Counted from the first letter of the stretch, positions 471 through 55,143 are shown. The stretch is 64,000 nucleotides of DNA from Candidatus Omnitrophota bacterium (GCA_026416665.1 JAOAET010000051.1:11800-75799), one strand, 5' to 3'. Numbers and translations are program-made. The notes: generated from the sequence alone by a model not told the origin.

Positions 471-3092
471 TTATAAACTTGCGTTACCTGGAATAAGTTT
501 TAAAACCTCATCCCTCAGCTTCTTGGCGATTGTTTCGTAGTCCCCATTTAACTGTTGAGGATAAATTGGATGGCCAAAGATAACCTTTATTGGATGTGGC
601 CGAGGCAATTTCGCACTTCTTGGCCAAGAATAATGTGAACCTTGAATATATACAGGAACTACTGGGATACCTAACTCTTTTATTAAGATACCCACTCCTT
701 TTTTGAACTCTTTTACCTGTTTATCTATAGAACGCCTGCCCTCAGGAAATATACAAACAGTTTTCTTATGCGATAATACGAAAGAAACTGCCTGCATACC
801 TAAGGTTAAGTGGGTCTCAGTATCAATAGAAATTAAACGACATATCTTGATTGCCCAACTCAGTAAAGGATGTTCAAAAATACGTTGATATCCTACAAAG
901 TAAGTATTAATAGAAATCTTAAAAGGTAAACTTAAGAAAATAAATAACCCGTCTAGGTAACTGGCATGGTTTGGACAGATAAGATACGGTCCTTGTTTGG
1001 GCAGATTTTGACTACCTTGGCTTCTTAATAACCACAAGATTCTAAAAAGTAATAAAAAAATGTTTTTGATTACAAAAGTAATTACGGTCTCATAAAACCC
1101 AAAATCAATTTTTATCTTTTTAATTACCTCTTCTGGAGGCAATTCAGCTAAAATTTCCTTCCAATTTTTTTCTTTGGTTTTTGTATGTCTTGGATTTTTG
1201 TTTTGAATTAATTGCTCTAAATTTATAATGAGGTCTTTAACAGTAGCTACTTTATAGAGTAACTCATCAGGAATTTTTATCTTTAAAAGTGCTTCTAAAC
1301 CCAAACCAAGTTCTACTCTTGTTAGAGAGTCAATGCCAAGGTCAATTTCAAGGTGACTATTTAAATCCACAGGTTTTTTTATTTCCTCTGAAATATAACG
1401 AATTATTTTTTTAGCGATTTCTTTATTTAAAATCGCCAGTTCCTCTTCTGTATAAGATGCCTTTTCTTCTTTAACAGGCAAATTCTTTGACAAATATTTT
1501 TCTATTAACTGATAACGTTTAATCTTTCCCAAAGCAGTCCTAGGCAACTTTTCTTTGGTAAGGACAAACCCCATGATATGTTGATAAGAAGGAAGCTTCT
1601 TACTTAATGCCTCTAAATCCCAGCGTATTTTCTCACGGATATTTAATTCTCTTTTTTGCTTAAAATATTCTAAGTCTGGCACTATAACAGCAAAAAGCAA
1701 AACGCTAGGATAACCAAAGGTCTTTTCTGTCTTAGGGATAATAGCTATCTCTTTTATCCAAGGACTGGTTTGGTAATACTCTTCCAATTCCTCGGGATAG
1801 ATGTTCTTACCCGACGACAAAACAATAACTTCTTTTTCTCTACCTACAAGGAAAAGATATCCTTCCTTATCAATGTAACCTAAATCACCAGAATAAAACC
1901 AACCTTCTCTGATTGTGTCTGCGGTTAACTTTTCCTGTTTAAAATATCCTGCCATTACATTAGGGCCTTTAATCAATACCTGACCTATTGCCTTTTTATC
2001 AGGATTGGCTATCTTAATTTCTACATCAGGCAATGGCTTTCCTACAGAACCAAATTTTATTCTATTTGGTGGATTAATTGTCACTACTGGCGAGGTCTCA
2101 GTCAATCCGTAACCTTCAATTATTTTTAACCCTAAGGTTGTTAAACCTTTTCCGATATCCGGTTCCAAACGCGCCCCACCGCTTACTAATAACCGTAAAC
2201 TGCCGAATTTACTACGCAATCTTATCCTGACAAAAGGCAAAATCAAAGGTCTTAAGACAAAAGGAATATTTTGTATCTTCTCCATTATTGCCTTATGAAG
2301 AAGAGAAAAAATCTGCGGCACCCCTACCAAAATTGTGATCGAGGCCTCACTTATTATCTGAAAAATTTCTTGAGATTTAATATTTAAGGCATAGGTCACT
2401 TTAGCGCCTAAGAAAAGCGGAACAATCAAAGTTACCATAAAGGCATACGCATGATACAAAGGTAAAACAGAAAGAAAATTATCTGAAGGATAACAAAGAT
2501 TTAGTTTTTTAATACTAATAAAATTTGAGCAGATATTCTTGTGTGTAAGCATTACTGCCTTGGGTTTACCCGTTGTTCCTGAGGTATAAATAAGCGAAGC
2601 GATATCCTCAGGTTTGACTTCAGGCCAGTTAATATGTTCGTAAGAAACATTCTTTATTTTTTCCTTTACTTCCTCTGCATCCAAAACGATAGCTTCTGTT
2701 TTAGTTCCTACTATGGCCTGCTTTATTTTTTTACTAAAGAGGTCATTGCTGGTAAAAACAATCTTCGCACTACAATCCAGTATAATATTTCTTATCTCAT
2801 CTGGACTTAATTGGGGGTCTAAAGGCAAACAGGATAAACCTGCTTTCATTATCCCAAAATACACTGTAGCCCACTCAGGACAGTTCTCTAAAATTAAACA
2901 GGCAAAATCCCCTTTTTTCAGGCCTTTTTCTCTGATCAAGAATCCAGCTAATTTTAAGGACAGGTCTTCTAATTGTTTGTAAGTCCATTTTTCCCAAACT
3001 GAGCCTTTTTTTATTTGAAAACACACCTGCTGAGGAAAATTTCGGACTGTCTTGCTAAAAAATTCAGTGATAACTAAATTCTCTTCATTCAT
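471..3092 (-). CDS. Tri-domain fusion: acyl-AMP/acyl-CoA ligase (AMP-binding), acyl-carrier-protein domain, transmembrane segment and PlsC-type lysophospholipid acyltransferase
   Basis: N-terminal AMP-binding motif 'LIYTSGTTGKPKAV', then 'YSGDLGY' and 'GKI' motifs. A phosphopantetheine attachment site 'LEIDLGIDSLTRVEL' follows. A hydrophobic helix comes next, then the PlsC catalytic motifs 'PNHASYLD' (HX4D) and 'FPEGRRS'. The ORF track starts at 3134, but the second Met (MNEENL...) at 3092 forms an ATGA overlap with the upstream stop, so that is the likely true start. Confidence 0.8.
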   Translation of the reverse strand: MNEENLVITEFFSKTVRNFPQQVCFQIKKGSVWEKWTYKQLEDLSLKLAGFLIREKGLKKGDFACLILENCPEWATVYFGIMKAGLSCLPLDPQLSPDEIRNIILDCSAKIVFTSNDLFSKKIKQAIVGTKTEAIVLDAEEVKEKIKNVSYEHINWPEVKPEDIASLIYTSGTTGKPKAVMLTHKNICSNFISIKKLNLCYPSDNFLSVLPLYHAYAFMVTLIVPLFLGAKVTYALNIKSQEIFQIISEASITILVGVPQIFSLLHKAIMEKIQNIPFVLRPLILPFVRIRLRSKFGSLRLLVSGGARLEPDIGKGLTTLGLKIIEGYGLTETSPVVTINPPNRIKFGSVGKPLPDVEIKIANPDKKAIGQVLIKGPNVMAGYFKQEKLTADTIREGWFYSGDLGYIDKEGYLFLVGREKEVIVLSSGKNIYPEELEEYYQTSPWIKEIAIIPKTEKTFGYPSVLLFAVIVPDLEYFKQKRELNIREKIRWDLEALSKKLPSYQHIMGFVLTKEKLPRTALGKIKRYQLIEKYLSKNLPVKEEKASYTEEELAILNKEIAKKIIRYISEEIKKPVDLNSHLEIDLGIDSLTRVELGLGLEALLKIKIPDELLYKVATVKDLIINLEQLIQNKNPRHTKTKEKNWKEILAELPPEEVIKKIKIDFGFYETVITFVIKNIFLLLFRILWLLRSQGSQNLPKQGPYLICPNHASYLDGLFIFLSLPFKISINTYFVGYQRIFEHPLLSWAIKICRLISIDTETHLTLGMQAVSFVLSHKKTVCIFPEGRRSIDKQVKEFKKGVGILIKELGIPVVPVYIQGSHYSWPRSAKLPRPHPIKVIFGHPIYPQQLNGDYETIAKKLRDEVLKLIPGNASL

Positions 3093-3895
3093 TTTAGATG
3101 GCGTTTTAGAAAGTCTGAGATTTTCAGCATACACTCTTGATTGTAAATGTAGAAGGCATCATTATGTCCACCTTGCATAACATACAACTCTTTTGGTTCT
3201 TTAGCTGCTGTAAAGAGCATCTGGGCATGTTTAAATGGCACAATCTCATCATTTTTACTGTGAATAAAAAGTTTAGGCATGGTGATTGTGCCTACTTTTT
3301 TTAGCGAGTCGTATTTTTGCGTTACAAAAAGCCACAGAGGAATAAATTTATAGATATCTTTGGCTAAGTTGACAATAGAGGAAAAACCACTTTCAGAAAT
3401 AAGTGCTCCTGCTTTTACCTTGCTTGCCAAATCAATAGCTACTGCTGCACCTAAGGATTTTCCGTAAAGCACGATTTTTTCAGGCGGTATTCTTTTTGTC
3501 TTGACCAGATATTCATAGGCAGCTATTGCATCTAAATATGTTCCTAATTCAGATGGGCTACCTTGACTTCTTCCAAACCCGCGGTAGTCAAAGATAAAAA
3601 AACTAAAGTTTCTTTCATTAAATAATTTAGCTACTTCTATACGGTGGCTGATATTGCCAGCATTTCCGTGAAAATAAAGAACCACTATATCCTGATTTTG
3701 TGCAGGAATAAACCAACCGTTTAGGATAAGACCGTCTTGTGTTTTAAAAAATATATCTTCATAATTTAAGCCTCTACCTAATGGTGTAAATTCTATAGTT
3801 TTTTCAGGATAAAAGATTGATTTATATTCAAATATTCTCATATATATAAGAAAAAGTGATACTAAAATAATTAAAAGAATAACTTTTCTTAACAT
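3089..3895 (-). CDS. Membrane-anchored alpha/beta-fold hydrolase (BEM46/ABHD-like)
   Basis: N-terminal TM helix, 'HGNAGN' oxyanion-region motif, GxSxG nucleophile elbow 'GKSLGAA' and a C-terminal 'GGHND' His motif. Its TGA stop overlaps the ATG of the downstream fusion gene (ATGA). Confidence 0.75.
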   Translation of the reverse strand: MLRKVILLIILVSLFLIYMRIFEYKSIFYPEKTIEFTPLGRGLNYEDIFFKTQDGLILNGWFIPAQNQDIVVLYFHGNAGNISHRIEVAKLFNERNFSFFIFDYRGFGRSQGSPSELGTYLDAIAAYEYLVKTKRIPPEKIVLYGKSLGAAVAIDLASKVKAGALISESGFSSIVNLAKDIYKFIPLWLFVTQKYDSLKKVGTITMPKLFIHSKNDEIVPFKHAQMLFTAAKEPKELYVMQGGHNDAFYIYNQECMLKISDFLKRHLK

Positions 3896-4243
3896 TCTCT
3901 GCTGTGCTTATCTGGGGCAAAGTAAAAACAAAAATACTACTTTAATCCTCCAGCATCACGCCTGCCCGTAAATTCCTCTAATCAGTATTTATTCTCTCAG
4001 GAACTTCCCAGAAGAATGGTAATAATCTTTACCGTGTGCACAAAGATAAAACCTGAAACTTCACCAATACAGTCAACAATATATCCTACCTAAAATGACA
4101 AAAATTCGAAAGAAACAAACCGATTGTCTAAGTTTCATTTAATCTAAAAACGCACCTTATATAACCAGATATATAAAAAATAAATACCTTTACTAAACAT
4201 AAATCCCTAAATAACGTAAGTAAATTCAGAACCCCTTTTCTCT

Positions 4244-5845
4244 CTATTCATTAAAAAGGATTTTCATAACTGTAGATAAATCCGTTACCAGTTTTTGTAT
4301 AGATGTATAATCTAACTTTTCATAGGTGTCTTCTGGTGTATGGTAATAAGGATTACGACAAAAGGCTGTATCGGTTAACATTATGGCTTGGTAGCCAAAT
4401 CTCCAAAAGGACCAATGGTCAGAGAAGCTTATTTCTGGTATTAAAAAAATTGGGGCAACTAAAAACTCTATCGGCAAACTTGACTGTTTCTTAAATTCCC
4501 TGACTATCTTCTTCAAAAAACCTGAAGAACGAAGATTACTTATTGACGCGATAAAATTTCCCTTATCAGGATAGTAATATCTGAAGAGCCTTGTAGGATA
4601 GTTCTGTGAATTTCTTTTATTTGAATAATAACCTATAGACTCTAAACATATAACCCCTACAATATTATCCCCTCTTTTTTTTGCTTCTTGTGCGTATTGG
4701 AAACTGCCCATATCCTTAGTCATAAAAAAAGGTGGCTCTTCATTGGTAAAAGCAATAAATTTTATAGTTTGTTTGATTTCTTCTGGTGATAAAATCCTGG
4801 CTATTTCAAGAAGCCCAGCTACTCCAGAGGCATTATCATCTGCTCCGACAGAACCGATTACTGAATCATAATGAGCACACACAATGAGAATTTTCTCAGG
4901 GTGCACTTTACCTATTTTAGTAGCAATAATATTTCTATAAATTTTTCCTTCCAGGGAATAAACCTGCTCTTGTGGTTGGTAGCCATAATTCTTAAATTCT
5001 TGTTTTATATAATCAGCTGCTTGCTCTAAGTTTTGGTGGTGGCTAAAATTTCTCTCGCCTATATCTATTGATAGAAATTTAACATGTTTTTTTAGATTAT
5101 CATGTATTATTTGCTCTTGATACGTGTCTTTAGTCTGGTCTGTCTTAGCCCTTATCATCGGAACAAATCTCACGGGAATAATATTACTAATCACAATCTT
5201 GCCATTTTCCTTTTTGACTAATTTTAATTCTTGATAGTCAGCTCCTACGGGAATAACTAATCTTCCACCTTCAGCCAGTTGCTCTATCAAGGGCTTCGGG
5301 ATATCTTCTGCAGCGCAGGTAACTATAATCGCATCAAAAGGAGCCTGCTCGGGCCATCCCAGAAAACCATCTGCACATTTAACGTGGATATTTTTGTAAC
5401 CTAAATCTGTAAGTAATCTCTCTGCACGCTCTGCCAAAGGTTTTAATATCTCTATGGTATAAACCTGGTGGCTTAACTCTGCTAAAATCGCTGCTTGGTA
5501 TCCAGACCCAGTGCCTATCTCAAGTACCTTCTGGTTACCTTTCAACTCAAGAAGCTCGGTCATCAATGCTACAATATAGGGTTGGGAGATAGTCTGACCT
5601 TCACCAATCGGCAGTGGTGTGTCATCGTAAGCAAAAGGTCTAAATAACTCAGGGACAAATAAATGTCTTTTTACTTTACGCATTGCCTCTAAAACAGGCG
5701 TATCTTTTATGCCCCGCGCTTGTATCTGTTCTATTACCATCTTCTCTCTTTGCCGGTCAAAGTCCTGACACCAGACATTTCTGTTTAAAGTTAGAGAAAA
5801 CATACTGATAAACACCAATAGTTCTGCTTTTTGTTTAAGCTGCAT
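4244..5845 (-). CDS. Fusion of protein-L-isoaspartate O-methyltransferase (PIMT/Pcm) and M28 family Zn-aminopeptidase, with an N-terminal signal or anchor sequence
   Basis: Hydrophobic N-terminus '[12 protein letters not shown]'. PIMT motifs '[17 protein letters not shown]' and '[18 protein letters not shown]'. C-terminal M28 metal ligands 'CAHYDSV', '[12 protein letters not shown]', 'FTNEE' and 'YYHTPEDT'. Confidence 0.8.
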
Positions 5846-5902
5846 CTTGTGGTCAAATAATATTCTAAGTCCAAAACTGTATTTCAGAAATTTTATTTTG
5901 TT

Positions 5903-6604
5903 TTATTTTCTTTTACCTACTGGCATTATATATAGCGGTTCTTCTTTTATATTTAAGACCTTTTTTACTGCCTCATCTACAAATGCACCAACAGCTACAG
6001 TGGCAAGACCTAAAGATTCTGCCTGAAGATAGATATTTTGTCCAACATGTCCTGCCTCAATATGAACATATCTTTCTCCTCGTTCTCCGTACTTTTGCTT
6101 TGTTCTTTCATACTGGGCACAAATAACCAAGCTTACGGGCGCATTTTTTACGGCAGTTTGAAAAAGAGAGCTAGCAGATAAAGCAAGTCGCTTATCACCA
6201 TCAACGATTTTAATAAGCGAATGTCTTTTGGGATTATATTGATAAACCCCTGTTGTTAATTTTTCTACATTACCAACCACTAAATAAATCTCTAAAGGAT
6301 AAAGAGCACCTGCAGAAGGAACAGCCCTACCACCCCATTTAGTAGTAATTCCTTGTGCTGACCAGAGAAGTTGTGCAACCTCCTCTAAACTTAAGGGGGC
6401 ATCTTTATATTCCCTTACCGACCTTCTTTTAAAAATAGCCTGCTCTACTGAAAGTTTACCTGTTGTCTGAATTGCTGGAAGTTTTATCTCTTCTTTACTT
6501 TCACTTTCTGCTAAAATTATTCCTTTATTTTTTAGAAAATAACCAACAGAAAGTAATTCTGCAAACATAATTACGCTTGCAATAACTAAAAAATATTTCT
6601 TCAT
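5903..6604 (-). CDS. SagB-type dehydrogenase / nitroreductase-family protein with an N-terminal signal or anchor
   Basis: 'RRSVREY', 'AVPSAGALYPLEIY', 'YERTKQKYGERGERYVHIEAGHVGQNIYLQAESLGLATVAVGAF' and a terminal 'PVG' are the signature blocks of the SagB-type dehydrogenase domain of the nitroreductase superfamily. Hydrophobic N-terminus. Confidence 0.75.
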   Translation of the reverse strand: MKKYFLVIASVIMFAELLSVGYFLKNKGIILAESESKEEIKLPAIQTTGKLSVEQAIFKRRSVREYKDAPLSLEEVAQLLWSAQGITTKWGGRAVPSAGALYPLEIYLVVGNVEKLTTGVYQYNPKRHSLIKIVDGDKRLALSASSLFQTAVKNAPVSLVICAQYERTKQKYGERGERYVHIEAGHVGQNIYLQAESLGLATVAVGAFVDEAVKKVLNIKEEPLYIMPVGKRK

Positions 6605-6620
6605 TCTTCTTCCTCCATTA

Positions 6621-7562
6621 TCACCATCCTTGAATATCCAAATTAGTAAGACCCATTTGTTTTGCCCATCTTATAACTTCTTGATACTCCTGTTTTGTAA
6701 TTCTGCGGGCAATCTCAGGATAAAGATAAGCTTGGTGGCAAGGTGTATACTGGGACATAATGTTAAGGTAGGTATCCTTAGGTAAATTATTTGCTATCCA
6801 TTCAATAATTTCCTTTGTCCCTGCTACCCTATTAGGCATAACCAGGTGCCGTATCATCAGTCCACGGTAAATTAAGTTATCTTCCGTAAGTTTTGCTACG
6901 CCCACTTGGCGATGCATCTTAAGAATTGCTTCTCTTGTGACTTCAGCATAATCTTTTACTTGAGGTAAATGCCTCTGGGAAAACTCGTTATCCCAATATT
7001 TAAAATCTGGAAGATAAATATCTACTACCCCGTCCAAGTAATTTAGTATCTCTCCACGCTCCCAACCGCAGCTGTTATAAACAATGGGTAATCGTAAACC
7101 TTTACCCACCGCAATATCTAAAGCAAAAAGAATATGCGCTAAATAATGTGTAGGCGTAACCAGGTTAATATTATGACATCCTATCTTTTGTAATCTTAAC
7201 ATCATCTCTGCTAATTCTTCTATACTTATTGCCTCTGCTTCTTCTCCCTGACTAATCTGCCAGTTTATACAGAAAACGCACCTTAAAGCACAATGTGCAA
7301 AGAATATAGTCCCTGAACCACCCGTACCAACAAGAGGTCTTTCCTCACCAAAATGCGGATGGAATGAAGAGACCATCAACTGAGAATTTGCCTGACAAAA
7401 CCCTTTCTTTCCAGCAAGTCGGTCTACTTTACACTGTCGCGGACAGAGCCTGCAACTTTTCATTATATCCCAGAGTCTTTGGGCACGTTTTGCAAGTTCT
7501 CCAGTTCTGTGTAGTTTTAAATAACCTGGCTCAAAATTTAACTTAGCAATGTCTTTGTCCAT
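6621..7562 (-). CDS. Radical SAM enzyme, PflX-like (pyruvate formate-lyase activase-related) with an extra N-terminal Cys motif
   Basis: N-terminal 'CRLCPRQC', then 'GFCQ' and the canonical CX3CX2C cluster 'CALRCVFC', plus a glycine-rich SAM motif 'GTGGSGTIFF'. The family assignment (COG1313-like) is from memory and not searched. Confidence 0.7.
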   Translation of the reverse strand: MDKDIAKLNFEPGYLKLHRTGELAKRAQRLWDIMKSCRLCPRQCKVDRLAGKKGFCQANSQLMVSSFHPHFGEERPLVGTGGSGTIFFAHCALRCVFCINWQISQGEEAEAISIEELAEMMLRLQKIGCHNINLVTPTHYLAHILFALDIAVGKGLRLPIVYNSCGWERGEILNYLDGVVDIYLPDFKYWDNEFSQRHLPQVKDYAEVTREAILKMHRQVGVAKLTEDNLIYRGLMIRHLVMPNRVAGTKEIIEWIANNLPKDTYLNIMSQYTPCHQAYLYPEIARRITKQEYQEVIRWAKQMGLTNLDIQGW

Positions 7563-8001
7563 AAAAAAGCTTTATCTTTTATCTTAAAAAGCACTCCTAT
7601 AGTAAAACATGCTTAATCTACCAAAAACATAAAAAAGTCAAACAATATTATTTTGGTTAATTTAGATAGGAAACCTCTAAAACATTTTTAAAACTATCGT
7701 TAAACTTCCTATTTAGACTTAGAATTTTTTCTAAAAATAGTTTTTACAAATTAAAAATTTTTTATTTGTAATTTCTTTCTTCTATCGGAGAGAAAACAGG
7801 ATTGCTTCCTACAAAAAAGACGTTGTCAGGGATGAGATAAAATTCAGTTTAAAAATATTTTACCAAAACAACATTTATAGCCAGAATAAGAAACAGAGTT
7901 CTTGCTTTAACGATACTGGCAATTATTTTCTATGCCAACAGGAGGCTTCTCCACCCTTCAAGCACTCTTTTTAGGAAAGTTAATTCTACTGTATTAGGTG
8001 A

Positions 8002-8169
8002 TTATAAATGATTTAGCACGAAATTACAGAAATAACTAACCAATAAATCAAAGATATCTTTATGATACCTGTGATTATATCTAAATTCAAGTTCTTTAAG
8101 ATAAAGAGGTAATCTTTCTTTAGATAACCCATGAAACTTTATAAGTTTTTCTAAAGTTGTGGTCTGCAT
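8002..8169 (-). pseudogene. Remnant of an IS1595/ISXO2-like transposase, C-terminal 55-aa fragment
   Basis: The minus-strand ORF reads MQTTTLEKLIKFHGLSKERLPLYLKELEFRYNHRYHKDIFDLLVSYFCNFVLNHL. The 'HL(P)LYLKEfEFRYNhR' block is the characteristic C-terminal motif of IS1595-family (ISXO2-like DDE) transposases. No upstream catalytic domain remains. It lies in an ORF-free AT-rich island next to tRNA-His. Confidence 0.45.
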
Positions 8170-8174
8170 AGCAT

Positions 8175-8202
8175 AAAAAACCTCCGCTTTTTTAAGCGAA
8201 GG
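8175..8202 (-). terminator. Rho-independent terminator candidate downstream of tRNA-His
   Basis: Inverted repeat cctccgc/gcgaagg (7 bp, one mismatch) with an 8-nt loop. On the minus strand it is followed by TTTTTT. Confidence 0.45.
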
Positions 8203-8384
8203 TTACTTATTTTTATGTGAAGTTTCCCACTTTGAATTCACCACTAAATAATTTATTTCTATTAACAGGCAAAATGGTATCATTAAAGCATATCTTTATC
8301 AATTTTTTCTTGTATAAATATTAATATGTTAAATACTAAACAACCACCTTTTTTAAATGAAAAGCTCTTTAATTTTCAAAGATT

Positions 8385-8462
8385 TGGGGTGGCTGAGGGG
8401 GCTCGAACCCCCAACCCTCAGAGCCACAGTCTGATGCTCTAGCCAGTTGAGCTACAGCCACC
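8385..8462 (-). tRNA. tRNA-His (anticodon GUG)
   Basis: The reverse complement is GGTGGCTGTAGCTCAACTGGCTAGAGCATCAGACTGTGGCTCTGAGGGTTGGGGGTTCGAGCCCCCTCAGCCACCCCA. It has the extra 5' G(-1) typical of tRNA-His, anticodon loop CTGTGGC and an encoded CCA. It is very close to E. coli tRNA-His. Confidence 0.9.
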
Positions 8463-8559
8463 ACAATTTTATCCTACAAATTGTTCAATAGAGATTACAA
8501 AAAAATTTATTTTATCTTATGAGTTAATATTTTTCAATAACAAAAAACCTTTATCTGTG

Positions 8560-10158
8560 CTAATTACTAGTATTACTTGAAGTTATTTCTTGCTTTTCTC
8601 CCTGCTTGATTGCTGGCGAAGTTTCTTTTTGTTCTCTACGAAAGCTTGCCTTTAAGGCACCAGTTAATTCTTGACCTATTCCTACTGTAGTATTAATTAG
8701 CGATTTTGTCAAGTCAGCGGCCGTAGAAAAAGTATCCTTTATTGCCGAAGCAGGCAAACGGATAACCTTGCCTACAGGACTCGGACGAGGTGCTGCTTGA
8801 CTTAAACGCTCTACTAAGGCATTACGAATAACCTGAATACCAAATTCTGGACTATCAAATTTTGTCCTGTAGGTAAAATCTAAAACTATTGCCTCCTGAT
8901 TCTGCTGTCTTAGCATTCCAATGACTTTTTCTGTAAGACGTTCAAGCCGGTCTTTTTGTTCATCCTTCTGCCTTGGTTTAAACTCAAGCTGGGTAAGTTC
9001 AAGTCTACAAAAAGCAGTAACTTCATTATTTACCCCAGTTATATTGCTGGTGAAGTTAAAACGTGCCTTTTGAATCCGTGCTTTCTCTATGTCAACCCAA
9101 GGGCTAAAATATGGCGAAAGTTTAATTGCGTCTAGATTTTTTATGCGAACATTAGCGTTTATGTTACGTCTATAGAAGTTAACCCAACCATCTATTACTA
9201 AAACACCTTTTTCATCTAACTGTGCTGAAGGAATATTTGCCCGGATTTTAAAAAAATTGACTGTATCAGCAGTAACTGGCCAACGAAAGTTTTCAATTAC
9301 AGCGTTTATTTCTTTCAGATTTAACTCAAGTGGCTGTTCACTTATCTTATGATCAACAAATCGTATCTGCCCTTCGGTTAAAATGATTTTCTTTATATAC
9401 AGAGAGTTTATAGGTATATTGCTTAGATTGCTAAGATTTAGACCTTGAATTCTTTTGCGAAACAAAGACAAAGGTACTTGTTCGCTTGAAACAGCCTGCG
9501 AACCCTGTGAGAAAAATTCAGATGAAGTTAAAGTTAGCTTTTGATTATTTTGGTTATCTTCCGGCAATAAAAAATTAGTTTTATTTTGAATTTGTATTTG
9601 AGCCTGCTGTTGTGTTTGACTTCCTGTTAAGTTCATTAGTTGATTTTGCTCTTGGATTTTTGGGGTTACTTGAGATTGCGTTTGTGATTCTCTATAAAAC
9701 TCCTCTCTAACTTTTAAATTTTTTTCTTTTGTGGAAACGGATTCACCAGAAGATACGTCTGTTGATGCAGGCGGTGACTTTACTTGTGTTTCAATATTCT
9801 GGTTTAAGGCGGAGTTTTCTAAATTATTTTGTTGTTTTTTCCGTTCAATTACAAAATCAAGCCCTTCTAAGTTAAGCTCAGATAAAACAATATTTTGTCT
9901 TAACAGACCAATAACGCCAAGACCTGCAGAAAGCTTCTTACAGTAAAACAAGTCATTTACTTTAAGGTCCAAAACCACCAACTTTAAAGGCAATTCCATA
10001 GTGATTGAACCAATCTGAACTCGCCGCCCAAAAAGCCTTTCTAAACGACTGGTGAAAATCTGTGGACCTTTTTTACTTACAAGATAATCTAAAGAAAAAA
10101 AAGCCAATAGTGCTATCACTAAAATGCCAACGGTAAACCAAATTACTACTCTGGTCAT
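8560..10158 (-). CDS. Membrane-anchored AsmA-like / DUF748-like protein with a Gln/Asn-rich low-complexity linker
   Basis: N-terminal TM helix, AsmA-like N- and C-terminal blocks and a central Q/N/S-rich region (~residues 110-230). Confidence 0.5.
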   Translation of the reverse strand: MTRVVIWFTVGILVIALLAFFSLDYLVSKKGPQIFTSRLERLFGRRVQIGSITMELPLKLVVLDLKVNDLFYCKKLSAGLGVIGLLRQNIVLSELNLEGLDFVIERKKQQNNLENSALNQNIETQVKSPPASTDVSSGESVSTKEKNLKVREEFYRESQTQSQVTPKIQEQNQLMNLTGSQTQQQAQIQIQNKTNFLLPEDNQNNQKLTLTSSEFFSQGSQAVSSEQVPLSLFRKRIQGLNLSNLSNIPINSLYIKKIILTEGQIRFVDHKISEQPLELNLKEINAVIENFRWPVTADTVNFFKIRANIPSAQLDEKGVLVIDGWVNFYRRNINANVRIKNLDAIKLSPYFSPWVDIEKARIQKARFNFTSNITGVNNEVTAFCRLELTQLEFKPRQKDEQKDRLERLTEKVIGMLRQQNQEAIVLDFTYRTKFDSPEFGIQVIRNALVERLSQAAPRPSPVGKVIRLPASAIKDTFSTAADLTKSLINTTVGIGQELTGALKASFRREQKETSPAIKQGEKQEITSSNTSN

Positions 10159-10287
10159 TTTTTAAATTTGATTCCAACCCTGGATTAAATGCCTTAAGGC
10201 AGGAAGATGTTGTGGTTCCAAGTTAAAAATTGATGTCTCAAATTATGTCTGCTTCTGATGCTGTTAGGCTTAACGATTCATATATCA

Positions 10288-10361
10288 TGCGCCTGGCAGG
10301 GATTGAACCTGATACCCACTGCTTAGAAGGCAGCTGCTCTATCCAAGTGAGCTACAGGCGC
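10288..10361 (-). tRNA. tRNA-Arg (anticodon UCU)
   Basis: The reverse complement is GCGCCTGTAGCTCACTTGGATAGAGCAGCTGCCTTCTAAGCAGTGGGTATCAGGTTCAATCCCTGCCAGGCGCA. The cloverleaf is resolvable with anticodon loop CTTCTAA. CCA is not encoded. Confidence 0.85.
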
Positions 10362-10373
10362 GCTTACACTACT

Positions 10374-10811
10374 TTACTCTTTTTTCTCTCCGTCAATAAC
10401 AAAATCGCCAGTGCGATTTAAAATCTTTGTAAGATAGAAAAGTGCCTTTTCTATATCGCCTAATTGTCCATAAAAAACGCCTATGTTAAAATTGGCCTCT
10501 TTATAATCAGGGTCAATAGCAAGCGCTGCGTGAAATGCTGCCTCTGCTGCTTGGGTATTACCCATTCTTGCTTGAAGAACCCCCATATTATTATAAACTG
10601 CCTTCATAATATCAGGGCGTTCGCCTCCAAGTAACATCATTGTTTTCTGGTAATGTGCCTTGGCAGTAACAAAATCGCCTGCCTTCTGAGCCCTGACAGC
10701 CTCATTATACCGGGCGAGCCCCTCTTCTACTTTAAAAGAATTCTGGCAGAAAGAAAAAATAGGAAATATCAAAAGAATAATTGTAGTTACCCAGTATATT
10801 TTTGTCTTCAT
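10374..10811 (-). CDS. TPR-repeat protein with a signal peptide
   Basis: N-terminal hydrophobic leader followed by three or four tetratricopeptide-like repeats ('AKAHYQKTMMLL', 'AEAAFHAALAIDPDY'). Confidence 0.6.
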   Translation of the reverse strand: MKTKIYWVTTIILLIFPIFSFCQNSFKVEEGLARYNEAVRAQKAGDFVTAKAHYQKTMMLLGGERPDIMKAVYNNMGVLQARMGNTQAAEAAFHAALAIDPDYKEANFNIGVFYGQLGDIEKALFYLTKILNRTGDFVIDGEKKE

Positions 10812-10962
10812 GACTTCACCCCTTTCTTTATAAAAATATCCAGAATAAATCCTTGCCTTATGAAGAAAACATTATTCTTTTAAAGCCAAAACCTGTTATT
10901 TTTTTATGAAGAACTTCCCTTAAAAGAATTAGTTTAACTTGTATTTTTAAAATACTGTTTTT

Positions 10963-11041
10963 TGGTCGGGGCGGACAGACTTGAACTGTCGACCTCTTGC
11001 TCCCAAAGCAAGCGCTCTAAGCCAAACTGAGCCACGCCCCG
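10963..11041 (-). tRNA. tRNA-Pro (anticodon UGG)
   Basis: The reverse complement is CGGGGCGTGGCTCAGTTTGGCTTAGAGCGCTTGCTTTGGGAGCAAGAGGTCGACAGTTCAAGTCTGTCCGCCCCGACCA. C1-G72 pair, perfect T-stem GACAG/CTGTC, anticodon loop TTTGGGA, encoded CCA. Confidence 0.85.
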
Positions 11042-11047
11042 TTGACT

Positions 11048-11671
11048 TCAATTATAACAATGCTTGTTTTCTTTCTCAATATATTTCTCTAATAACTGTT
11101 TTACCTTTTTTAAAGCCTTAAAACGATGACTGATTTTATGCTTCACTGAGATAGGCAGTTCTCCAAAAGTTTTACCAAAACGCCTGATAAGAAATAAAGG
11201 GTCATAACCAAATCCGTTTTTTCCACGAGGTTCTTTTGCTATACGACCATAACATCTACCCTCTACCACACCAATAAGTCCATTTTTATCTGCTAAAGCT
11301 ATAGCACAGACATAATAGGCACGTCGCTTTTTTTCAGGGACATCCTTTAACTGCTGCAGAAGTTTTTGGTTATTCTTCTCATCACTCTTATTTCTTCCGC
11401 TGTAGCGGGCAGAACGCACCCCCGGAGCACCACCTAAGGCATCCACACAAAGACCAGAATCCTCTCCCATAGTCAACATCCCAGTTTTAGCTGCAACAGT
11501 GGTAGCTTTTTTAATAGCATTTTCCTTAAATGTCTGGCCGTCTTCACGGATATAGATGGGTTTATTAATATCCGCTAGAGAAATAATTTTACAAGGCATA
11601 TCACGCATAATCTGTTTAATCTCACGCAGTTTTTTCTGATTTTTTGTAGCAACCAACAGAGTAATTCTCAT
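11048..11671 (-). CDS. rdgB: Non-canonical purine NTP pyrophosphatase (RdgB/HAM1 family)
   Basis: 'LVATKNQKKLREI' N-terminus and the 'GFGYDPLF...KISHR' C-terminal signature. Confidence 0.8.
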   Translation of the reverse strand: MRITLLVATKNQKKLREIKQIMRDMPCKIISLADINKPIYIREDGQTFKENAIKKATTVAAKTGMLTMGEDSGLCVDALGGAPGVRSARYSGRNKSDEKNNQKLLQQLKDVPEKKRRAYYVCAIALADKNGLIGVVEGRCYGRIAKEPRGKNGFGYDPLFLIRRFGKTFGELPISVKHKISHRFKALKKVKQLLEKYIEKENKHCYN

Positions 11672-12388: not shown

Positions 12389-12425
12389 ATTAACCCCTTC
12401 TTCCTCTTTAACAAATAAAATATAT

Positions 12426-13856: not shown

Positions 13857-13877
13857 AATTTTACCTCTACATAAAAT

Positions 13878-26331: not shown

Positions 26332-27414
26332 TTACTTATTTAGTTTTAGTCTCCATTGTCTTGATGCTTCTTTATAGGCAATAAAAGACTCTTTTACAGA
26401 GAAATCATTTCGTAAAAGGCCAAAATAATCTATACCATTTTTCCAATGTCCATTAGTGTCACGCCAAAAGGCCCAAAATATTTTTTCAACGTACTTAATA
26501 TCGAGTAATTTAGTAAATACTAACCTAACCCATTGTGCTTGCTGGTGTTCATTAGGATTTTTACCCAACCACCAATTATCTACCCGCAACCCTCTACGCA
26601 CCCCAGGAGCCCCCAGTTCAGTAATCCATATTTTTTTATGCCCATCTTTGTTTCGCTGCATAATCTTATGTACCCGTTCAAGAAATGCCTGTGCACGTTT
26701 CAAAGCAAGCGGATCAAGCGGTGACTCAAACAAATGCACATTCATTATATCAAAATATCCAGCTGCACCAGCATCGTATAGTCTGTTTACCGAAGCAAGA
26801 CCATTTGCCAGCCCACCATTTAACACAAAACAGTTAGGATCCTCTTGTTTAATTGCACAATAAACATCCTTTAACAGCCCAACATATTTAACCAGTCCAT
26901 CTTGCGGCTGCCAATAAACATTAGAATCCGGCTCATTCCATATCTCCCAGTATCTTATTCTGTCTTTATAACGATTTACTACTTTTTGGGCAAATTGGAC
27001 AAATAGAAGATTATCTTTAGGTGGACAATTCCATCTTCCACAACTAGATGCCCAATCAGCACTATAATCAAGTAAACCTAGAATTTGAATATTACGACGC
27101 ACTAACATCTCAACTAGCTCATCATAAAGTTGAAAATTCCAAATCCCTTCTTGGGGCTCAATTTCTTGCCAAACGAAATCAAGCCGGACAATACTTACTC
27201 CTGCCTCTACCATCTTATCTACTGAAAGTAAACGACTATCTGTGTCAGGGTAGTGAAAATTGTTCCAGTTGTGGTTCCAGTGTAAAAAATCTAATACACC
27301 AAAAGGTGTATCACAGATATCTCTATTATCAGTTCCCATAACAACCCCTTGTCCTAAAAGAAAAATTAATATCAAAATACTACCTAGCTTTTTTTTCATA
27401 TGGCCTGTCTTCAA
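26332..27414 (-). CDS. Secreted TIM-barrel glycoside hydrolase (GH5/GH39-like clan GH-A)
   Basis: Signal peptide. 'RYWEIWNEPD' (acid/base Glu in the NEP motif) and 'ITELG' (nucleophile Glu). Confidence 0.65.
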   Translation of the reverse strand: MKTGHMKKKLGSILILIFLLGQGVVMGTDNRDICDTPFGVLDFLHWNHNWNNFHYPDTDSRLLSVDKMVEAGVSIVRLDFVWQEIEPQEGIWNFQLYDELVEMLVRRNIQILGLLDYSADWASSCGRWNCPPKDNLLFVQFAQKVVNRYKDRIRYWEIWNEPDSNVYWQPQDGLVKYVGLLKDVYCAIKQEDPNCFVLNGGLANGLASVNRLYDAGAAGYFDIMNVHLFESPLDPLALKRAQAFLERVHKIMQRNKDGHKKIWITELGAPGVRRGLRVDNWWLGKNPNEHQQAQWVRLVFTKLLDIKYVEKIFWAFWRDTNGHWKNGIDYFGLLRNDFSVKESFIAYKEASRQWRLKLNK

Positions 27415-28762
27415 CGTTAATGTAATCTGTAAATGAAAGTGACTCTCCCAACTCCTGCTTAACTACTCTAATACGGTCAGCTGTGAAAGGATGGGTCTTA
27501 AGATAATTTTTAGGACGAGGTGGTTTCCTACGATTGTCTTCTTGAAGTTTTTCGAGAAAACTAATCATACCCCGCGGGTTATATCCAGCAAGTTTTGCAT
27601 ATCGTGCTCCTAACTGGTCAGCTAATAATTCATCTTCACGGCTGTAACCCAATAAAAGAGTAGTAAACGCTGCATCAGAAGTTGCTAAAACTTCAGAATT
27701 CTCAGACAAGGGAATACTTAACAAGCGCATAAGGGAATATCCCATAATTGCCTGTAGTCTTTTGATACTGTGCCGAGCAACAATATGCCCTACTTCGTGT
27801 GCAAGAACAGCTGCTAACTCATCATCATTGGAGATTTTTTCCACCAACCCCTTGAAGACATATACATAACCACCAGGAAGGGCAACGGCATTCACTTCAT
27901 TTTCTTCAAGAACTTTAAATTCGTAATTAACATCCTTTCGGTCTGAGACAGTAGCAATTTGCTTACCAATACTTGCTACTTTCTCCTGAATAAGAGGATC
28001 AGAAACAGGCTTGTATTGTTTTTCAATTTCTTTAGCCATTGCTTGTCCTAAGGCTATTTCCCGCTCTGTAGAGTAATAAAATACTTCTTGTTGTCCTGTA
28101 ACTACATTGTATTCTGTAGAACAACCAGAGAATAAACCAGAAACCAAACTCAAGATACAAAAAATAGAAAAACTAAAAATACGCACCCCTATTTCTTTTA
28201 ACATCCGATATAATCGGCGAACAGGCAACCCCACTACATTATAAAAACAACCATCAATCCTTCGGATAAAAAAACCCCCTTTACCTTGTATATCAAAACT
28301 GCCCGCCTTATCCAAAGGATTAACACAGCGGAAATAACCTTTTATTTCTTTGTCTTGTAGATGGTCCATATATATCTTTGTCTTCTCAACGGCAAGCTTG
28401 GTAATTTTTTTCTCTACATCAATAACACATAACCCAGAATAAATCCACTGGGTTTTTCCTGATAAATATTTAAGCATCTTGCTTGCACTGGCTAAATCTT
28501 TAGGCTTTCCAAATACTTTTTTACCTTGCACTACAATCGTATCAGCTGCAATAACAATACCTTTTTTTAAACGGGCAGCTACTGCCTCTGCTTTACGACG
28601 GGCGTTTCTCTTTACTAGCTGAGCAAAAGACATCCCCTCTATAAAATCATCCTCTTTTATTCTACTAGGTATCACAGAAAACTTCAAACCAAATAACCTT
28701 AACAATTTCCTCCTTGCTTTAGAATCCGAAGCTAAATAGATAGGTTTTTGTTTCATTGCCAA
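27380..28762 (-). CDS. Fusion of a Maf-like nucleotide pyrophosphatase with an M48-family (HExxH) Zn metalloprotease, via a signal/lipobox-like hydrophobic segment
   Basis: N-terminal Maf motifs 'IYLASDSKARRKLL' and 'VIAADTIV'. Mid-protein 'RIFSFSIFCILSLVSGLFSGC'. C-terminal M48 'LAHEVGHIVARH' plus the downstream third-ligand region 'ELLADQLG'. One continuous reading frame. Confidence 0.7.
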   Translation of the reverse strand: MAMKQKPIYLASDSKARRKLLRLFGLKFSVIPSRIKEDDFIEGMSFAQLVKRNARRKAEAVAARLKKGIVIAADTIVVQGKKVFGKPKDLASASKMLKYLSGKTQWIYSGLCVIDVEKKITKLAVEKTKIYMDHLQDKEIKGYFRCVNPLDKAGSFDIQGKGGFFIRRIDGCFYNVVGLPVRRLYRMLKEIGVRIFSFSIFCILSLVSGLFSGCSTEYNVVTGQQEVFYYSTEREIALGQAMAKEIEKQYKPVSDPLIQEKVASIGKQIATVSDRKDVNYEFKVLEENEVNAVALPGGYVYVFKGLVEKISNDDELAAVLAHEVGHIVARHSIKRLQAIMGYSLMRLLSIPLSENSEVLATSDAAFTTLLLGYSREDELLADQLGARYAKLAGYNPRGMISFLEKLQEDNRRKPPRPKNYLKTHPFTADRIRVVKQELGESLSFTDYINVEDRPYEKKAR

Positions 28763-51654: not shown

Positions 51655-54066
51655 TTATTCGAAAGCTAATTCTTGGTTTTTCCTTACTACAGTTACAGTT
51701 TGACCTTCCGTAAATTTCTTAGCAATAATCTCCGAAGCCAAGGGATCCTCTAAGAAACGTTGAATAGTGCGTTTAAGTGGACGTGCGCCAAAAACAGGGT
51801 CAAAACCTTTTTCAATTAAAAACTCCTTTGCCTCAGCCGTAACATTTAGTGTAATTGCCTGTTCTTTAAGACGTTCAGCAACATGGGCGATTTCAATATC
51901 TACAATTTTCACCAAATCCTCTTTTACTAGAGGCCTAAACACAATAATATCATCAATACGATTGAGGAACTCAGGCTTAAAAGTGCGTTTTACCTCTTCT
52001 AATAACTTTTCTTTCATTTCTTGGTAAGTAATATCCTCTTTCTGTGCACGAAATCCAATGGAAGTAGCTTTACGGATTAACTCTGCTCCTACATTAGAAG
52101 TCATAATCACTACCGTGTTTCTAAAATCCACTTTTCTTGCGAAGCTATCAGTAAGGCGTCCTTCCTCAAATACCTGTAAAAGTAAATTAAACACATCAGG
52201 ATGTGCCTTCTCTATTTCATCTAAAAGTATCACAGAATAAGGTTTCCTACGCACTTTTTCAGTTAACTGCCCTCCCTCTTCATAACCTACATATCCAGGA
52301 GGTGCACCAATAAGACGAGAAACATTAAATTTCTCCATATACTCAGACATGTCTAACTGAATGATGGCATCTTCCTGACCAAAAAGATACTCTGCAAGGG
52401 CACGCGCAAGTAAAGTCTTTCCCACACCAGTTGGACCTAGAAAAATAAACGAGCCAATTGGTCGACGAGGATCCTTAATACCTGCTCGTGAACGCCTAAT
52501 TGCTGAGGCTATGGCCGAAATTGCTTCATCTTGCCCCACTACTTTTTTATGTAACTCGTCTTCTATCTTAAGCAGTTTCTCACCCTCTTTTTGTTCTAAA
52601 CGAAAAAGGGGAATTCCTGTCCATTGTGAAACAATTCGAGCAATATCTTCCTCTCCTACTTGTGGCCTTATCTTATCCTTAGTCTGTGCCCATTGACGAT
52701 TAAGTTTCTCTAGTTCTTCACGCGCCTGCCGCTCTTGGTCACGTAAGGCTGCAGCCTTTTCAAAATCTTGTGCCTTTATATGCATTTCTTTTTCTTTACG
52801 CAGTGCCTCTACCCTTGCCTCTAATTCCTTAATTTCAGGAGGCACCACTAATACATTTAAACGTGCACGTGAACCTGCTTCATCAATCAAATCAATGGCT
52901 TTATCAGGTAAAAATCTTCCTGAGATATAACGGTCGGATAACTTTGCCGCTGCTACTAATGCCTCTTCAGTAAAGGTAACACGGTGATGACTTTCATACT
53001 TCTCCCTTAGTCCTTTAAGAATTTCAACAGTCTGTTCCACTGTCGGCGGCTCAACCATTATTGTCTGAAATCTCCGCTCAAGAGCTGCATCTTTCTCAAT
53101 ATACTTACGATACTCGTCTAACGTAGTTGCTCCGATACACTGAATTTCACCACGGGATAAAGCAGGTTTAAGAATATTAGAGGCATCTATTGCCCCTTCT
53201 GCAGCACCTGCTCCTACTAAAGTATGCAACTCATCAATAAAAATAATTACATCCTGTGAACGCTTTATCTCCTCCATTACTGCTTTAATACGCTCTTCAA
53301 ATTGTCCGCGGTATTTTGTTCCAGCAATCATCAAAGCAAGGTCTAAAACAATCAGGCGCTTATGTCGCAATATCTCGGGGACATTTCCTGCAACAATTGC
53401 CTGGGCAAGACCTTCTACTATAGCGGTTTTTCCTACACCTGCCTCTCCTAAAAGCACGGGATTATTTTTTGTCCTTCGGCTTAGGATTTGAATAACCCGT
53501 TCAATCTCTGTCTTGCGGTTTATTACTGGGTCAAGCTTATTCTCACGAGCAAGAGCAGTCAAGTCTCTTCCAAAGGCATCTAAAGCAGGGGTTTTAGTTT
53601 TTGCCCCCTGTTGACTAAAAGTCGGCACATCTGAACCTAATACCTCCATTATCTTGTTTCGCACGGTAGTTAAATCTAAACCCAAGTTCAACAATATCTG
53701 CGATGCCACACCTTCTTCTTCGCGAATCAATCCCAGTAATAAATGCTCTGTTCCAATATAGTTGTGCCCTAAAGCACGTGCCTCTTCTGCGGCCAACTCT
53801 AGTGCCTTCTTTGCACGCGGAGTAAAAGGCAAATCTCCGATAATCTGAGTAGCTGGTCCTGGTTGCACTAATTTTTCAATCTCAATACGAATATTCTCTA
53901 ACGATACCCCCATCTTTTCTAAGACCGTAGCAGCCACTCCTTCTCCTTCACGGATAAGCCCTAAAAGTATATGCTCAGTTCCAATATAGTCATGGTTAAA
54001 TCTTTTAGCTTCTTCTTTTGCAAGAATAATTACCTTGCGTGCCCGTTCAGTAAAGCGATTAAACAT
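51655..54066 (-). CDS. clpC: ATP-dependent Clp protease ATP-binding subunit ClpC
   Basis: Two Clp_N repeats, two AAA+ modules ([16 protein letters not shown]), a ClpP-binding loop (IGF motif) and a linker/UVR-like middle domain. Confidence 0.9.
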
Positions 54067-54087
54067 ATTGCCTCCTATAAAGTAGCA

Positions 54088-55143
54088 TCACAGAGCTTTC
54101 TCTAATCTGTTGCGAATAAGCTCTGCGCGTTTTATATCACGTTCGTTTTGGTTTAGTTTTTTGTTCTCCATCTTCTGCAGATGCGCTGGTTGTGTAATAA
54201 TAAAAAGTTCATTGATAATTCGTCTGTTGATGTCTTTAATTATCTCTAAATCTACACCAAGCCGCACCAAAGAGAGTAACTCTGTTGTCTCCTGACTAGA
54301 GATTATTCTTGCGCTCTTTAATATTCCGTAGCTACGGTTAATCTTGTCTTCTAAGAGTGCTCTGTTTTGGGTAAGAAGGAGATTACGAGCCTGATTTTCC
54401 TGCTCAATAATTTGACGTATAAGACCATTTATGTTGTCAATAAGCTCAGTATCATTTCTTCCTAAGGCAATCTGATTAGAAATCTGAAAGAAATTACCCA
54501 TTGCTTGCGTTCCTTCACCGTATAAGCCGCGTGTAGCAAAACTTAATTTTGCAATTGCTGCTAGAACCTGATTAATCTGACGGGTCATTACTAACCCCGG
54601 CAGATGTAGCATCACTGAACCACGCATCCCCGTTCCTGTGTTAGTCGGACAAGCAGTTAAATATCCCCAATCTTCAGAGAATGCAAAAGATAACTCCTCT
54701 GCCAGGCAGTCATCAATACGATTGATTATGTTATAAGCCTCAAAGAGATTAAACCCTGACTGCATAACTTGGATACGCAAATGATCCTCTTCATTTATCA
54801 TAATAGAAACTATCTCTTCGCTATCTATTATCACAGCTTTTGAATCACTTTTTTGTGCATGTTCATAGGACATAAGGTGGCGTTCTACTAAAAACTGTTT
54901 ATCTAAACTGTCCATATCTGCTAATTTAAAAAGAGTGGACTTCTTCAGATAATCAATGTTTTTCATTGCCTCTTCCACCATATCCAAAACTTGTTTTGAC
55001 TGGCGTTTGTTTGCCCAGTGAGGAAAAGGCAACTTCTCAATATTGCGCGCAAAACGCACACGACTGGAGATAACAATATTAGAGTGTGGACCTGTTCCTT
55101 TCAACCACTCACTTGTATGAGATAGAAGGTCATTTAACTGCAT
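54088..55143 (-). CDS. mcsB: Protein-arginine kinase McsB (ATP:guanido phosphotransferase family)
   Basis: Phosphagen-kinase active-site region 'CPTNTGTGMR'. About 350 aa. It sits between mcsA and clpC. Confidence 0.8.
   Translation of the reverse strand: MQLNDLLSHTSEWLKGTGPHSNIVISSRVRFARNIEKLPFPHWANKRQSKQVLDMVEEAMKNIDYLKKSTLFKLADMDSLDKQFLVERHLMSYEHAQKSDSKAVIIDSEEIVSIMINEEDHLRIQVMQSGFNLFEAYNIINRIDDCLAEELSFAFSEDWGYLTACPTNTGTGMRGSVMLHLPGLVMTRQINQVLAAIAKLSFATRGLYGEGTQAMGNFFQISNQIALGRNDTELIDNINGLIRQIIEQENQARNLLLTQNRALLEDKINRSYGILKSARIISSQETTELLSLVRLGVDLEIIKDINRRIINELFIITQPAHLQKMENKKLNQNERDIKRAELIRNRLEKAL

Follow-up and report, generated by a model that had tools for sequence, protein, structure and literature searches.

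A decayed Omnitrophota operon joining a predicted exported PIMT–M28 fusion, a PflX-type radical SAM enzyme and a stand-alone SagB-type flavoprotein, with a possible role in envelope maintenance

In a stretch of 64,000 nucleotides from a Candidatus Omnitrophota bacterium (GCA_026416665.1 JAOAET010000051.1:11800-75799; hereafter the window), three consecutive minus-strand open reading frames (ORFs) encode a PflX-type radical S-adenosylmethionine (SAM) enzyme (6621..7562, 313 aa), a SagB-type flavin mononucleotide (FMN) dehydrogenase-like protein (5903..6604, 233 aa) and a fusion of the isoaspartyl methyltransferase PIMT with an M28 aminopeptidase (4244..5845, 533 aa), separated by 16 nt (6605..6620) and 57 nt (5846..5902). 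The trio occupies the 5' end of a five-gene unit (471..7562), which we read, with doubt and confidence about equally balanced, as a decayed copy of an Omnitrophota-specific operon whose products would form an envelope maintenance set for the repair and turnover of isoaspartate-damaged proteins, with radical and flavin enzymes as accessories. The enzyme families are all known and their association is the new element: no description of an exported PIMT together with a PflX-type radical SAM enzyme and a stand-alone SagB-type flavoenzyme was found in the searchable literature, nor was anything relevant on PflX-type radical SAM enzymes, exported PIMT or isoaspartate in Omnitrophota. An earlier, sequence-only reading had placed the three genes at these coordinates, on a shared strand and with these gaps, and had named all three domain types; the ORFs lie where it put them and the domain calls are correct by profile search.

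The closest relative of the radical SAM enzyme (P0002, 82% identity) is encoded in three loci, L171–L173, in which the trio is intact. The operon in these loci comprises an APC-type amino-acid permease, the radical SAM enzyme, the SagB-like protein, the PIMT·M28 fusion, an Atg22-like major facilitator superfamily (MFS) protein, an α/β-hydrolase and an acyl-AMP ligase·acyl carrier protein (ACP)·PlsC protein, its seven genes joined by start/stop overlaps or one 7-nt gap. Nucleotide alignment (blastn) matches window positions 7544-5903 to L171 7112-8744, 5820-4238 to 8769-10390 and 3917-463 to 11583-15035, at 70-78% identity, and the radical SAM, SagB-like, fusion and hydrolase genes give dN/dS values of 0.07-0.14 at dS of at least 1, so that purifying selection acts on the genes of the unit. 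Outside the array, the window and L171 have different neighbouring genes, and with selection of this strength at this divergence the unit is thus conserved as a block. The earlier reading had made its proposal depend on co-conservation of the trio in relatives; the trio is kept in L171–L173, and subsets of it recur in other orders elsewhere in Omnitrophota.

These related arrangements are varied. The order SagB-like, insertion sequence, fusion, MFS, hydrolase and Aas-like ligase–acyltransferase gene is seen in L084; L086 has fusion, MFS and hydrolase genes, with HydE/G-like genes upstream; L081 has Sua5, the fusion and an MFS/spermidine-synthase-like protein. CcdA, radical SAM, SagB-like and MFS genes adjoin in L002, SagB-like and MFS genes in L003, and patatin, hydrolase, radical SAM and SagB-like genes in L040, while L001 comprises radical SAM, DUF2784, CcdA and SagB-like genes and a stand-alone PIMT with predicted export. 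The SagB-like gene is followed by Aas-like, DUF3108 and DUF2784 genes in L174; L175 has the radical SAM gene, a 127-aa ORF, and Aas-like, M28 and flavodoxin-like genes. CcdA, radical SAM, permease and PIMT genes form L176 and, extended by hydrolase and DUF2784 genes, L177; in L088 the radical SAM gene is convergent with a permease–lipoprotein–PIMT pair, and L178 holds nitroreductase, CNT nucleoside transporter, M28 and PIMT genes. Beyond the phylum, a gammaproteobacterial locus (L058) groups hydrolase, SagB-like protein, DUF2784, a radical SAM paralog, PIMT and an MFS/spermidine-synthase-like protein within 7 kb.

The last of these proteins, a membrane protein of ~760 aa resembling a 'fused MFS/spermidine synthase', lies directly upstream of the radical SAM gene in 13 of 80 metagenomic loci and is a third SAM/decarboxylated-SAM-fold protein of the same neighbourhood network. 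Outside Omnitrophota it was noted (NF037959, PF01564) in this upstream place, on the same strand as the PflX-type enzyme, in L094, L100, L104, L120, L122, L123, L125, L126, L130 and L141, and adjoining a PIMT or SagB-like gene in L081, L058 and L062.

Missing from the window copy are the permease, the N-terminal anchor of the radical SAM enzyme, which in L171 is a signal of lipoprotein type, and the MFS gene. Homology of its radical SAM gene to that of L171 begins at codon 38 of the latter, and the upstream break point (7563..8169, minus strand) is AT-rich DNA without homology to the relatives, in which neither blastn nor tblastn returned a match to the L171 permease or to radical SAM codons 1-37. 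Exactly where synteny with L171 ends, a 55-aa ORF (8002..8169, minus strand) is similar to the C-terminal 25 residues of an IS1595 (ISXO2-like) transposase (PF12762, 18 bits, below cut-off), a weak remnant that may mark the rearrangement which removed the permease and the radical SAM signal peptide. A repeat search near the break point gave nothing informative. Further upstream lies tRNA-His (8385..8461); integration linked to a tRNA was considered and rejected, as the upstream tRNAs vary by locus (His, Pro, Ser) and leave no conserved attachment site. The second loss is recorded in a 348-nt gap (3896..4243), where blastn collinearity skips L171 10390-11583, the 1.2-kb Atg22-like MFS gene. A weak remnant of that gene at 4110..4211 (minus strand; tblastn of MFS aa 231-264, 44% identity, E 0.08) is the best MFS tblastn match in the whole window and lies on the expected strand; a similar 47-aa MFS stub is present in L177.

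The fusion protein is one continuous ORF with matches to PCMT (226 bits) and Peptidase_M28 (PF04389, 104 bits), and is divided into a predicted signal peptide (5768..5845, approximately aa 1-26), a PIMT domain (5144..5755, aa 31-234) and an M28 aminopeptidase domain (4289..4933, aa 305-519), all on the minus strand. The PIMT domain exceeds two equivalog cut-offs (NF001453, 264 bits against 188; TIGR00080, 241 bits against 159), and its motifs TISQP, LEIGxGSGY, VTCA and RLVIP are invariant in 15 fusion sequences, as are the candidate M28 metal ligands H325, D327, D337, E369, E370, E402 and H502, with H477 nearly so; the ligands were assigned by analogy rather than from a structure. The domain thereby retains all SAM- and substrate-binding motifs of classical PIMT, a stand-alone cytoplasmic protein, from which the window copy differs in its Sec-type signal peptide and fused M28 aminopeptidase. 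Because this signal precedes the PIMT domain, the fusion is predicted to be extracytoplasmic; signal heuristics were positive in 14 of 17 family sequences, and Sec-type signals with AXA-like sites (SVQA|QDF) occur among the homologs.

The PIMT–M28 architecture was found in 14 independent homologs. All known fusions are at least 62% identical to the window protein, and none of the best 150 matches in a library clustered at 50% spans both PIMT and M28, so the fusion represents a single narrow clade. Among its nearest relatives, PIMTs with predicted export are not uncommon, and are also fused to an M54 metallopeptidase, DUF2784 or a CNT transporter. Among other architectures observed (P0301, P0317, P0326, P0262) were a signal followed by PIMT and DUF2784, a CNT nucleoside transporter followed by PIMT, a lipoprotein signal followed by PIMT and archaemetzincin (M54), and a transmembrane segment followed by tandem PIMT domains. 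For this contig, the database proteins returned include the C-terminal 304-aa M28 part (P0255, 'M20/M25/M40 family metallo-hydrolase') and none for the PIMT half, despite the continuous ORF.

The radical SAM enzyme (PF04055, 42.9 bits) carries an auxiliary N-terminal motif, C37-x2-C40-P41-x2-C44 plus C56, ahead of the core C91-x3-C95-x2-C98. All seven cysteines are invariant across 34 homologs, and the auxiliary motif is the extra CxxCPxxC to which the sequence-only reading had drawn attention. Profile searches returned Radical_SAM as the sole full match, with NrdG, AmmeMemoRadiSam and pyruvate formate-lyase (PFL)-activating enzyme (PFL-AE) activases below threshold, and a sequence search of the PDB returned no match. 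In an AlphaFold2 model (pLDDT 89), the best PDB fold found by Foldseek was the PFL-activating enzyme 3c8f (E 1e-8, TM 0.55/0.69), the top matches being 3c8f, 8fo0 and 3cb8 (E 1e-8, TM 0.55-0.71) and the weaker ones including GDGT-MAS (7tom). The CX3CX2C core and PFL-AE-like fold are shared with the activases of glycyl-radical enzymes, but the protein scores 15 bits on TIGR02493 against a cut-off of 232; no long window ORF contains RV[SAC]G[YFW], and no PFL-like gene was found in the related loci that might provide a cognate glycyl-radical enzyme. The likeness to AmmeMemoRadiSam (TIGR04337) covers the entire catalytic domain as well as the N-terminal C-x2-C-P-x2-C...C motif (hhalign 98.8%, E 1e-16, 28% identity), whereas the score is 29 bits against a cut-off of 220, the Cys-rich C-terminal tail of the AmmeMemo type is lacking, and none of the loci showed an AMMECR1 or Memo gene. 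The window enzyme is tied to AmmeMemoRadiSam enzymes at the profile level only and belongs to a separate family.

The PflX-type family is highly conserved, at 65-82% identity over bacterial and archaeal phyla; no curated NCBIfam model covers it, and its entries are named just 'radical SAM protein' or 'putative PFL activating enzyme'. The window copy is one of the few without an N-terminal extension, most homologs having a predicted anchor or Tat (twin-arginine translocation)-like signal of ~30-60 aa. Of 82 scorable homologs, 74 have an extension, which contains RRxF[ILVTMA]K in 34, RR in 14 and simply a hydrophobic stretch in 26; 'GC' often comes next. To our knowledge, predicted export of radical SAM enzymes is unusual. 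A Tat-like S/T-R-R-x-F-[ILV]-K, a hydrophobic stretch and 'GC' were observed in most of the PflX-type homologs P0001-P0120. An AmmeMemoRadiSam-type paralog (TIGR04337, ~380 bits), with a Tat-like leader of its own, adjoins the PflX-type gene in 13 of 80 metagenomic loci. Loci with this paralog or with Tat-like leaders include L141, L147, L150, L152, L153, L162 and L166-L168; the Tat model TIGR01409 fired on the L141 copy only.

The SagB-like protein has a nitroreductase fold (PF00881, 121 bits) and matches TIGR03605 at 143 bits against a cut-off of 78. R60, S62 and R64, which make up the R-x-S-x-R motif for FMN binding, are invariant, as is Y172; in alignment, K171-Y172 corresponds to the 'WKY' of CyaGox, which we take to be the catalytic Lys-Tyr pair of thiazole/oxazole-modified microcin (TOMM) dehydrogenases; the family has a [K/R]-Y pair at this position. 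These features are shared with the azoline dehydrogenases SagB, McbC and ThcOx, which belong to TOMM and cyanobactin pathways and from which the window protein differs in being short, stand-alone, without a YcaO partner and equipped with a predicted signal or anchor (a lipobox in some homologs), in the lack of a conserved neighbourhood across phyla, and in having as its nearest solved relatives uncharacterised nitroreductases (3eo7, 8cqs, 3hoi, 3hj9) rather than azoline oxidases. The hydrophobic N-terminus of the window protein is predicted to be an anchor or signal; such a terminus is present in 101 of 112 scored homologs, 18 of which have a lipobox. As a stand-alone gene it is widespread, with at least 598 GTDB genome matches.

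Downstream of the trio, the unit continues into two further genes on the minus strand. The first encodes a membrane-anchored α/β-hydrolase (S33/S9-like; 3089..3895, 268 aa) with Hydrolase_4, Abhydrolase_1 and Peptidase_S9 matches, which shares 79-80% identity with the equivalently placed ortholog of L171 and is found again in L084, L086, L040 and L177. The second, overlapping it by 46 nt, encodes the Aas-like acyl-AMP ligase·ACP·PlsC-type acyltransferase (471..3134, 887 aa; AMP-binding 285 bits, PP-binding, Acyltransferase 87 bits), in which the H-x4-D motif is present (NHASYLD). The unit ends with this gene, and ~200 non-coding nt separate it from a new gene with a P-type-ATPase-like N-terminus. 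Orthologs of the Aas-like gene close the array in L171, L084, L174 and L175. Like the LplT-Aas pair, which re-acylates lysophospholipids in Gram-negative bacteria, the relatives have an MFS gene followed by a protein combining acyl activation with a PlsC-type acyltransferase, but the domain order in the window protein is ligase, ACP, acyltransferase, with the carrier domain built in, and it scores 273 bits on the Aas equivalog NF006386 against a cut-off of 1221. An LplT identity for the MFS protein of the relatives was rejected, since it matches Atg22 and MFS_1 and no LplT model.

A scan for promoters and terminators gave counts at or below shuffle expectation, with no terminator within the array. 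Rfam at gathering threshold, applied to the window and to six related loci, gave no SAM riboswitch, the matches being confined to tRNAs, tmRNA and unrelated FMN and c-di-GMP riboswitches.

The envelope maintenance reading draws on the predicted N-terminal export or anchor sequences of the SagB-like protein, the fusion and nearly all radical SAM orthologs (the window copy being an exception), and on the intact catalytic motifs of all three enzymes; together with the recurrence described above, these suggest that the products work at the cytoplasmic membrane or outside it. The fusion would be exported by Sec, and its PIMT domain would bind, and if SAM is available methylate, L-isoaspartyl sites in aged envelope proteins or peptides, while the fused aminopeptidase would trim the PIMT-bound substrates. 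The radical SAM enzyme, PFL-activase-like and with an extra Cys motif of [4Fe-4S] type, and the FMN dehydrogenase, with the catalytic Lys-Tyr of azoline oxidases, may act on a protein- or peptide-type substrate, and the hydrolase and Aas-like enzyme would probably handle acyl or lysolipid turnover. As a fallback, the sequence-only reading had offered a non-peptide-maturation module for protein modification or damage repair; this was its better suggestion and is plausible, if incomplete in that the unit is larger and runs through the hydrolase and Aas-like genes to 471.

Several observations weigh against the envelope maintenance reading. Signal peptides were judged from hydrophobicity and motifs, and the Tat model TIGR01409 had no match on 10 PflX homologs, for which reason their motif is called only 'Tat-like'. 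We know of no availability of SAM outside the cytoplasm, which leaves an exported PIMT and radical SAM enzyme without an obvious supply of cosubstrate. The local copy may be partly non-functional, given the loss of the radical SAM anchor, the MFS gene and the permease, and the Atg22-like rather than LplT character of the MFS protein weakens a classical lysophospholipid-recycling role. No SagB-like, PIMT or hydrolase gene was found in 80 metagenomic radical SAM loci outside Omnitrophota. Of at least 598 SagB-like loci matched, 80 from genomes of diverse bacterial and archaeal phyla were compared, and no single family of neighbours turns up in more than 10 of them; PIMT adjoins the SagB-like gene in two, and the PflX-type radical SAM gene adjoins it in three, all of Omnitrophota. 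With the linkage essentially limited to one phylum, conservation within Omnitrophota could partly be inherited synteny, which stays as a partial explanation.

The main rival takes this last point further: unrelated genes would be juxtaposed by chance or inheritance in a compact, single-strand, tightly packed genome, with synteny reflecting phylogenetic inertia. Nearly all window genes share a strand, and same-strand junctions measure 57 nt or less in 45 of 56 cases (median 6.5 nt); because close packing is the norm in this genome, the tight spacing of the trio carries no information on coupling. The cross-phylum radical SAM and SagB-like neighbourhoods above fit such a juxtaposition, the relatives carrying the fusion in L081-83 lack the radical SAM and SagB-like genes, L086 has its HydE/G-like genes upstream in their place, and the remainder of the window is ordinary housekeeping. 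Against it, the genes stay together despite changed order and orientation in at least six differently arranged Omnitrophota loci, at dS of at least 1 and with other flanks, and proximity kept while gene order shuffles usually signals functional coupling. PIMT lies within 5 kb of the radical SAM gene in 6 of ~12 such loci, though it is expected to be roughly single-copy; the gammaproteobacterial locus also brings these genes together; and the overlap of start and stop codons in L171, L084 and L086 implies that translation is coupled. Mere juxtaposition is, on this evidence, an unlikely account of the unit.

A role in membrane-lipid remodelling, in which the radical SAM and SagB-type enzymes would modify acyl chains or head groups together with the hydrolase, the patatin of L040 and the Aas-like enzyme, with the PIMT·M28 fusion as a passenger, is less probable still. 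It would fit the Aas-like gene at the end of the window array and those of L171, L084, L174 and L175, the direct succession of SagB-like and Aas-like genes in L174 and of radical SAM gene, 127-aa ORF and Aas-like gene in L175, and the patatin phospholipase upstream of hydrolase, radical SAM and SagB-like genes in L040; several radical SAM enzymes act on lipids, and GDGT-MAS is among the weaker fold matches. However, the best fold match, PFL-AE, is a protein-directed activase and not a lipid enzyme, the SagB-like protein has retained the Lys-Tyr motif found in peptide azoline oxidases, L176, L177 and L088 link the radical SAM gene to permease and PIMT with no Aas-like gene, and the MFS protein is not LplT.

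A stronger form of the envelope maintenance reading would make the operon a self-contained extracytoplasmic system for SAM-dependent protein repair, with the exported PIMT, whether or not fused to M28, and the anchored or Tat-targeted radical SAM enzyme both working outside the cytoplasm. In such a system SAM, at once an amino acid and a nucleoside, would be delivered by the associated APC or CNT transporter, electrons would come from CcdA and the exported FMN protein, and the targets of the radical SAM enzyme would be damaged residues in envelope proteins of long life, for example through Cα-H chemistry at isoAsp or D-Asp. We consider this extension improbable; if true, it would demonstrate for the first time that radical SAM chemistry and isoaspartate repair take place outside the cytoplasm.

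The maturation of a ribosomally synthesised and post-translationally modified peptide (RiPP), as the sequence-only reading had entertained, in which the radical SAM enzyme would modify a precursor, the SagB-type protein oxidise it, the PIMT homolog methylate it and M28 cleave it, is close to refuted: of the three features that define a TOMM pathway, the SagB-type dehydrogenase is present by its TIGR03605 score and invariant Y172, while cyclodehydratase and precursor are absent, and the predicted export of the enzymes also speaks against it, known RiPP tailoring being cytoplasmic. All four enzyme classes do occur in known RiPP pathways, and the PIMT domain has weak, sub-threshold matches to PIMT-like methyltransferases of such systems (FxLD TIGR04364, 151 bits, cut-off 320; ATP-grasp TIGR04188, 126 bits, cut-off 380), but it falls far under these models and above the cut-off for genuine Pcm, and the SagB-like family is stand-alone in hundreds of genomes. 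No YcaO was found in any ORF of 471-15797, any window ORF of at least 340 aa or the called genes of L081-L090 and L171-L178, and neither YcaO nor another cyclodehydratase in the window or any of ~15 related loci, as the earlier reading had itself remarked for the window. The small-ORF scan that it had proposed for 3896..4243 and 7563..8384 yielded only unconserved ORFs of 20-55 aa and no precursor; the former interval is the MFS remnant, the arrays of relatives have no intergenic space, and in L171, where every junction is an overlap or the 7-nt gap, there is no room for a precursor gene. The combination of radical SAM, SagB, PIMT and peptidase genes is on its own insufficient for calling a RiPP cluster, which may serve as a warning in annotation.

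The phylum-specific operon joins a predicted exported PIMT, here with an aminopeptidase, to a conserved PFL-activase-like radical SAM family and a stand-alone SagB-type flavoenzyme, and offers a first genomic handle on two large families without known function, the PflX-type radical SAM enzymes and the SagB-like nitroreductases that stand alone in anaerobes. Should the predicted localisation prove right, how SAM-dependent enzymes work outside the cytoplasm, and whether envelope proteins are repaired there, become testable questions.

Among the ordinary housekeeping genes that make up the rest of the window, three places deserve mention. A 532-aa protein with an N-terminal transmembrane segment and a long Q/S/N-rich low-complexity region (8560..10158, minus strand) is encoded between tRNA-Arg and tRNA-His and has no Pfam or NCBIfam match. 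A 460-aa ORF (27380..28762, minus strand) fuses a Maf-like nucleotide pyrophosphatase (aa 7-190) to Peptidase_M48 (aa 259-436). At 51655..55143 (minus strand), a ClpC-like AAA+ chaperone (Clp_N, AAA_2) adjoins a McsB-like ATP:guanido phosphotransferase, a protein-arginine-phosphorylation quality-control pair better known from Firmicutes.

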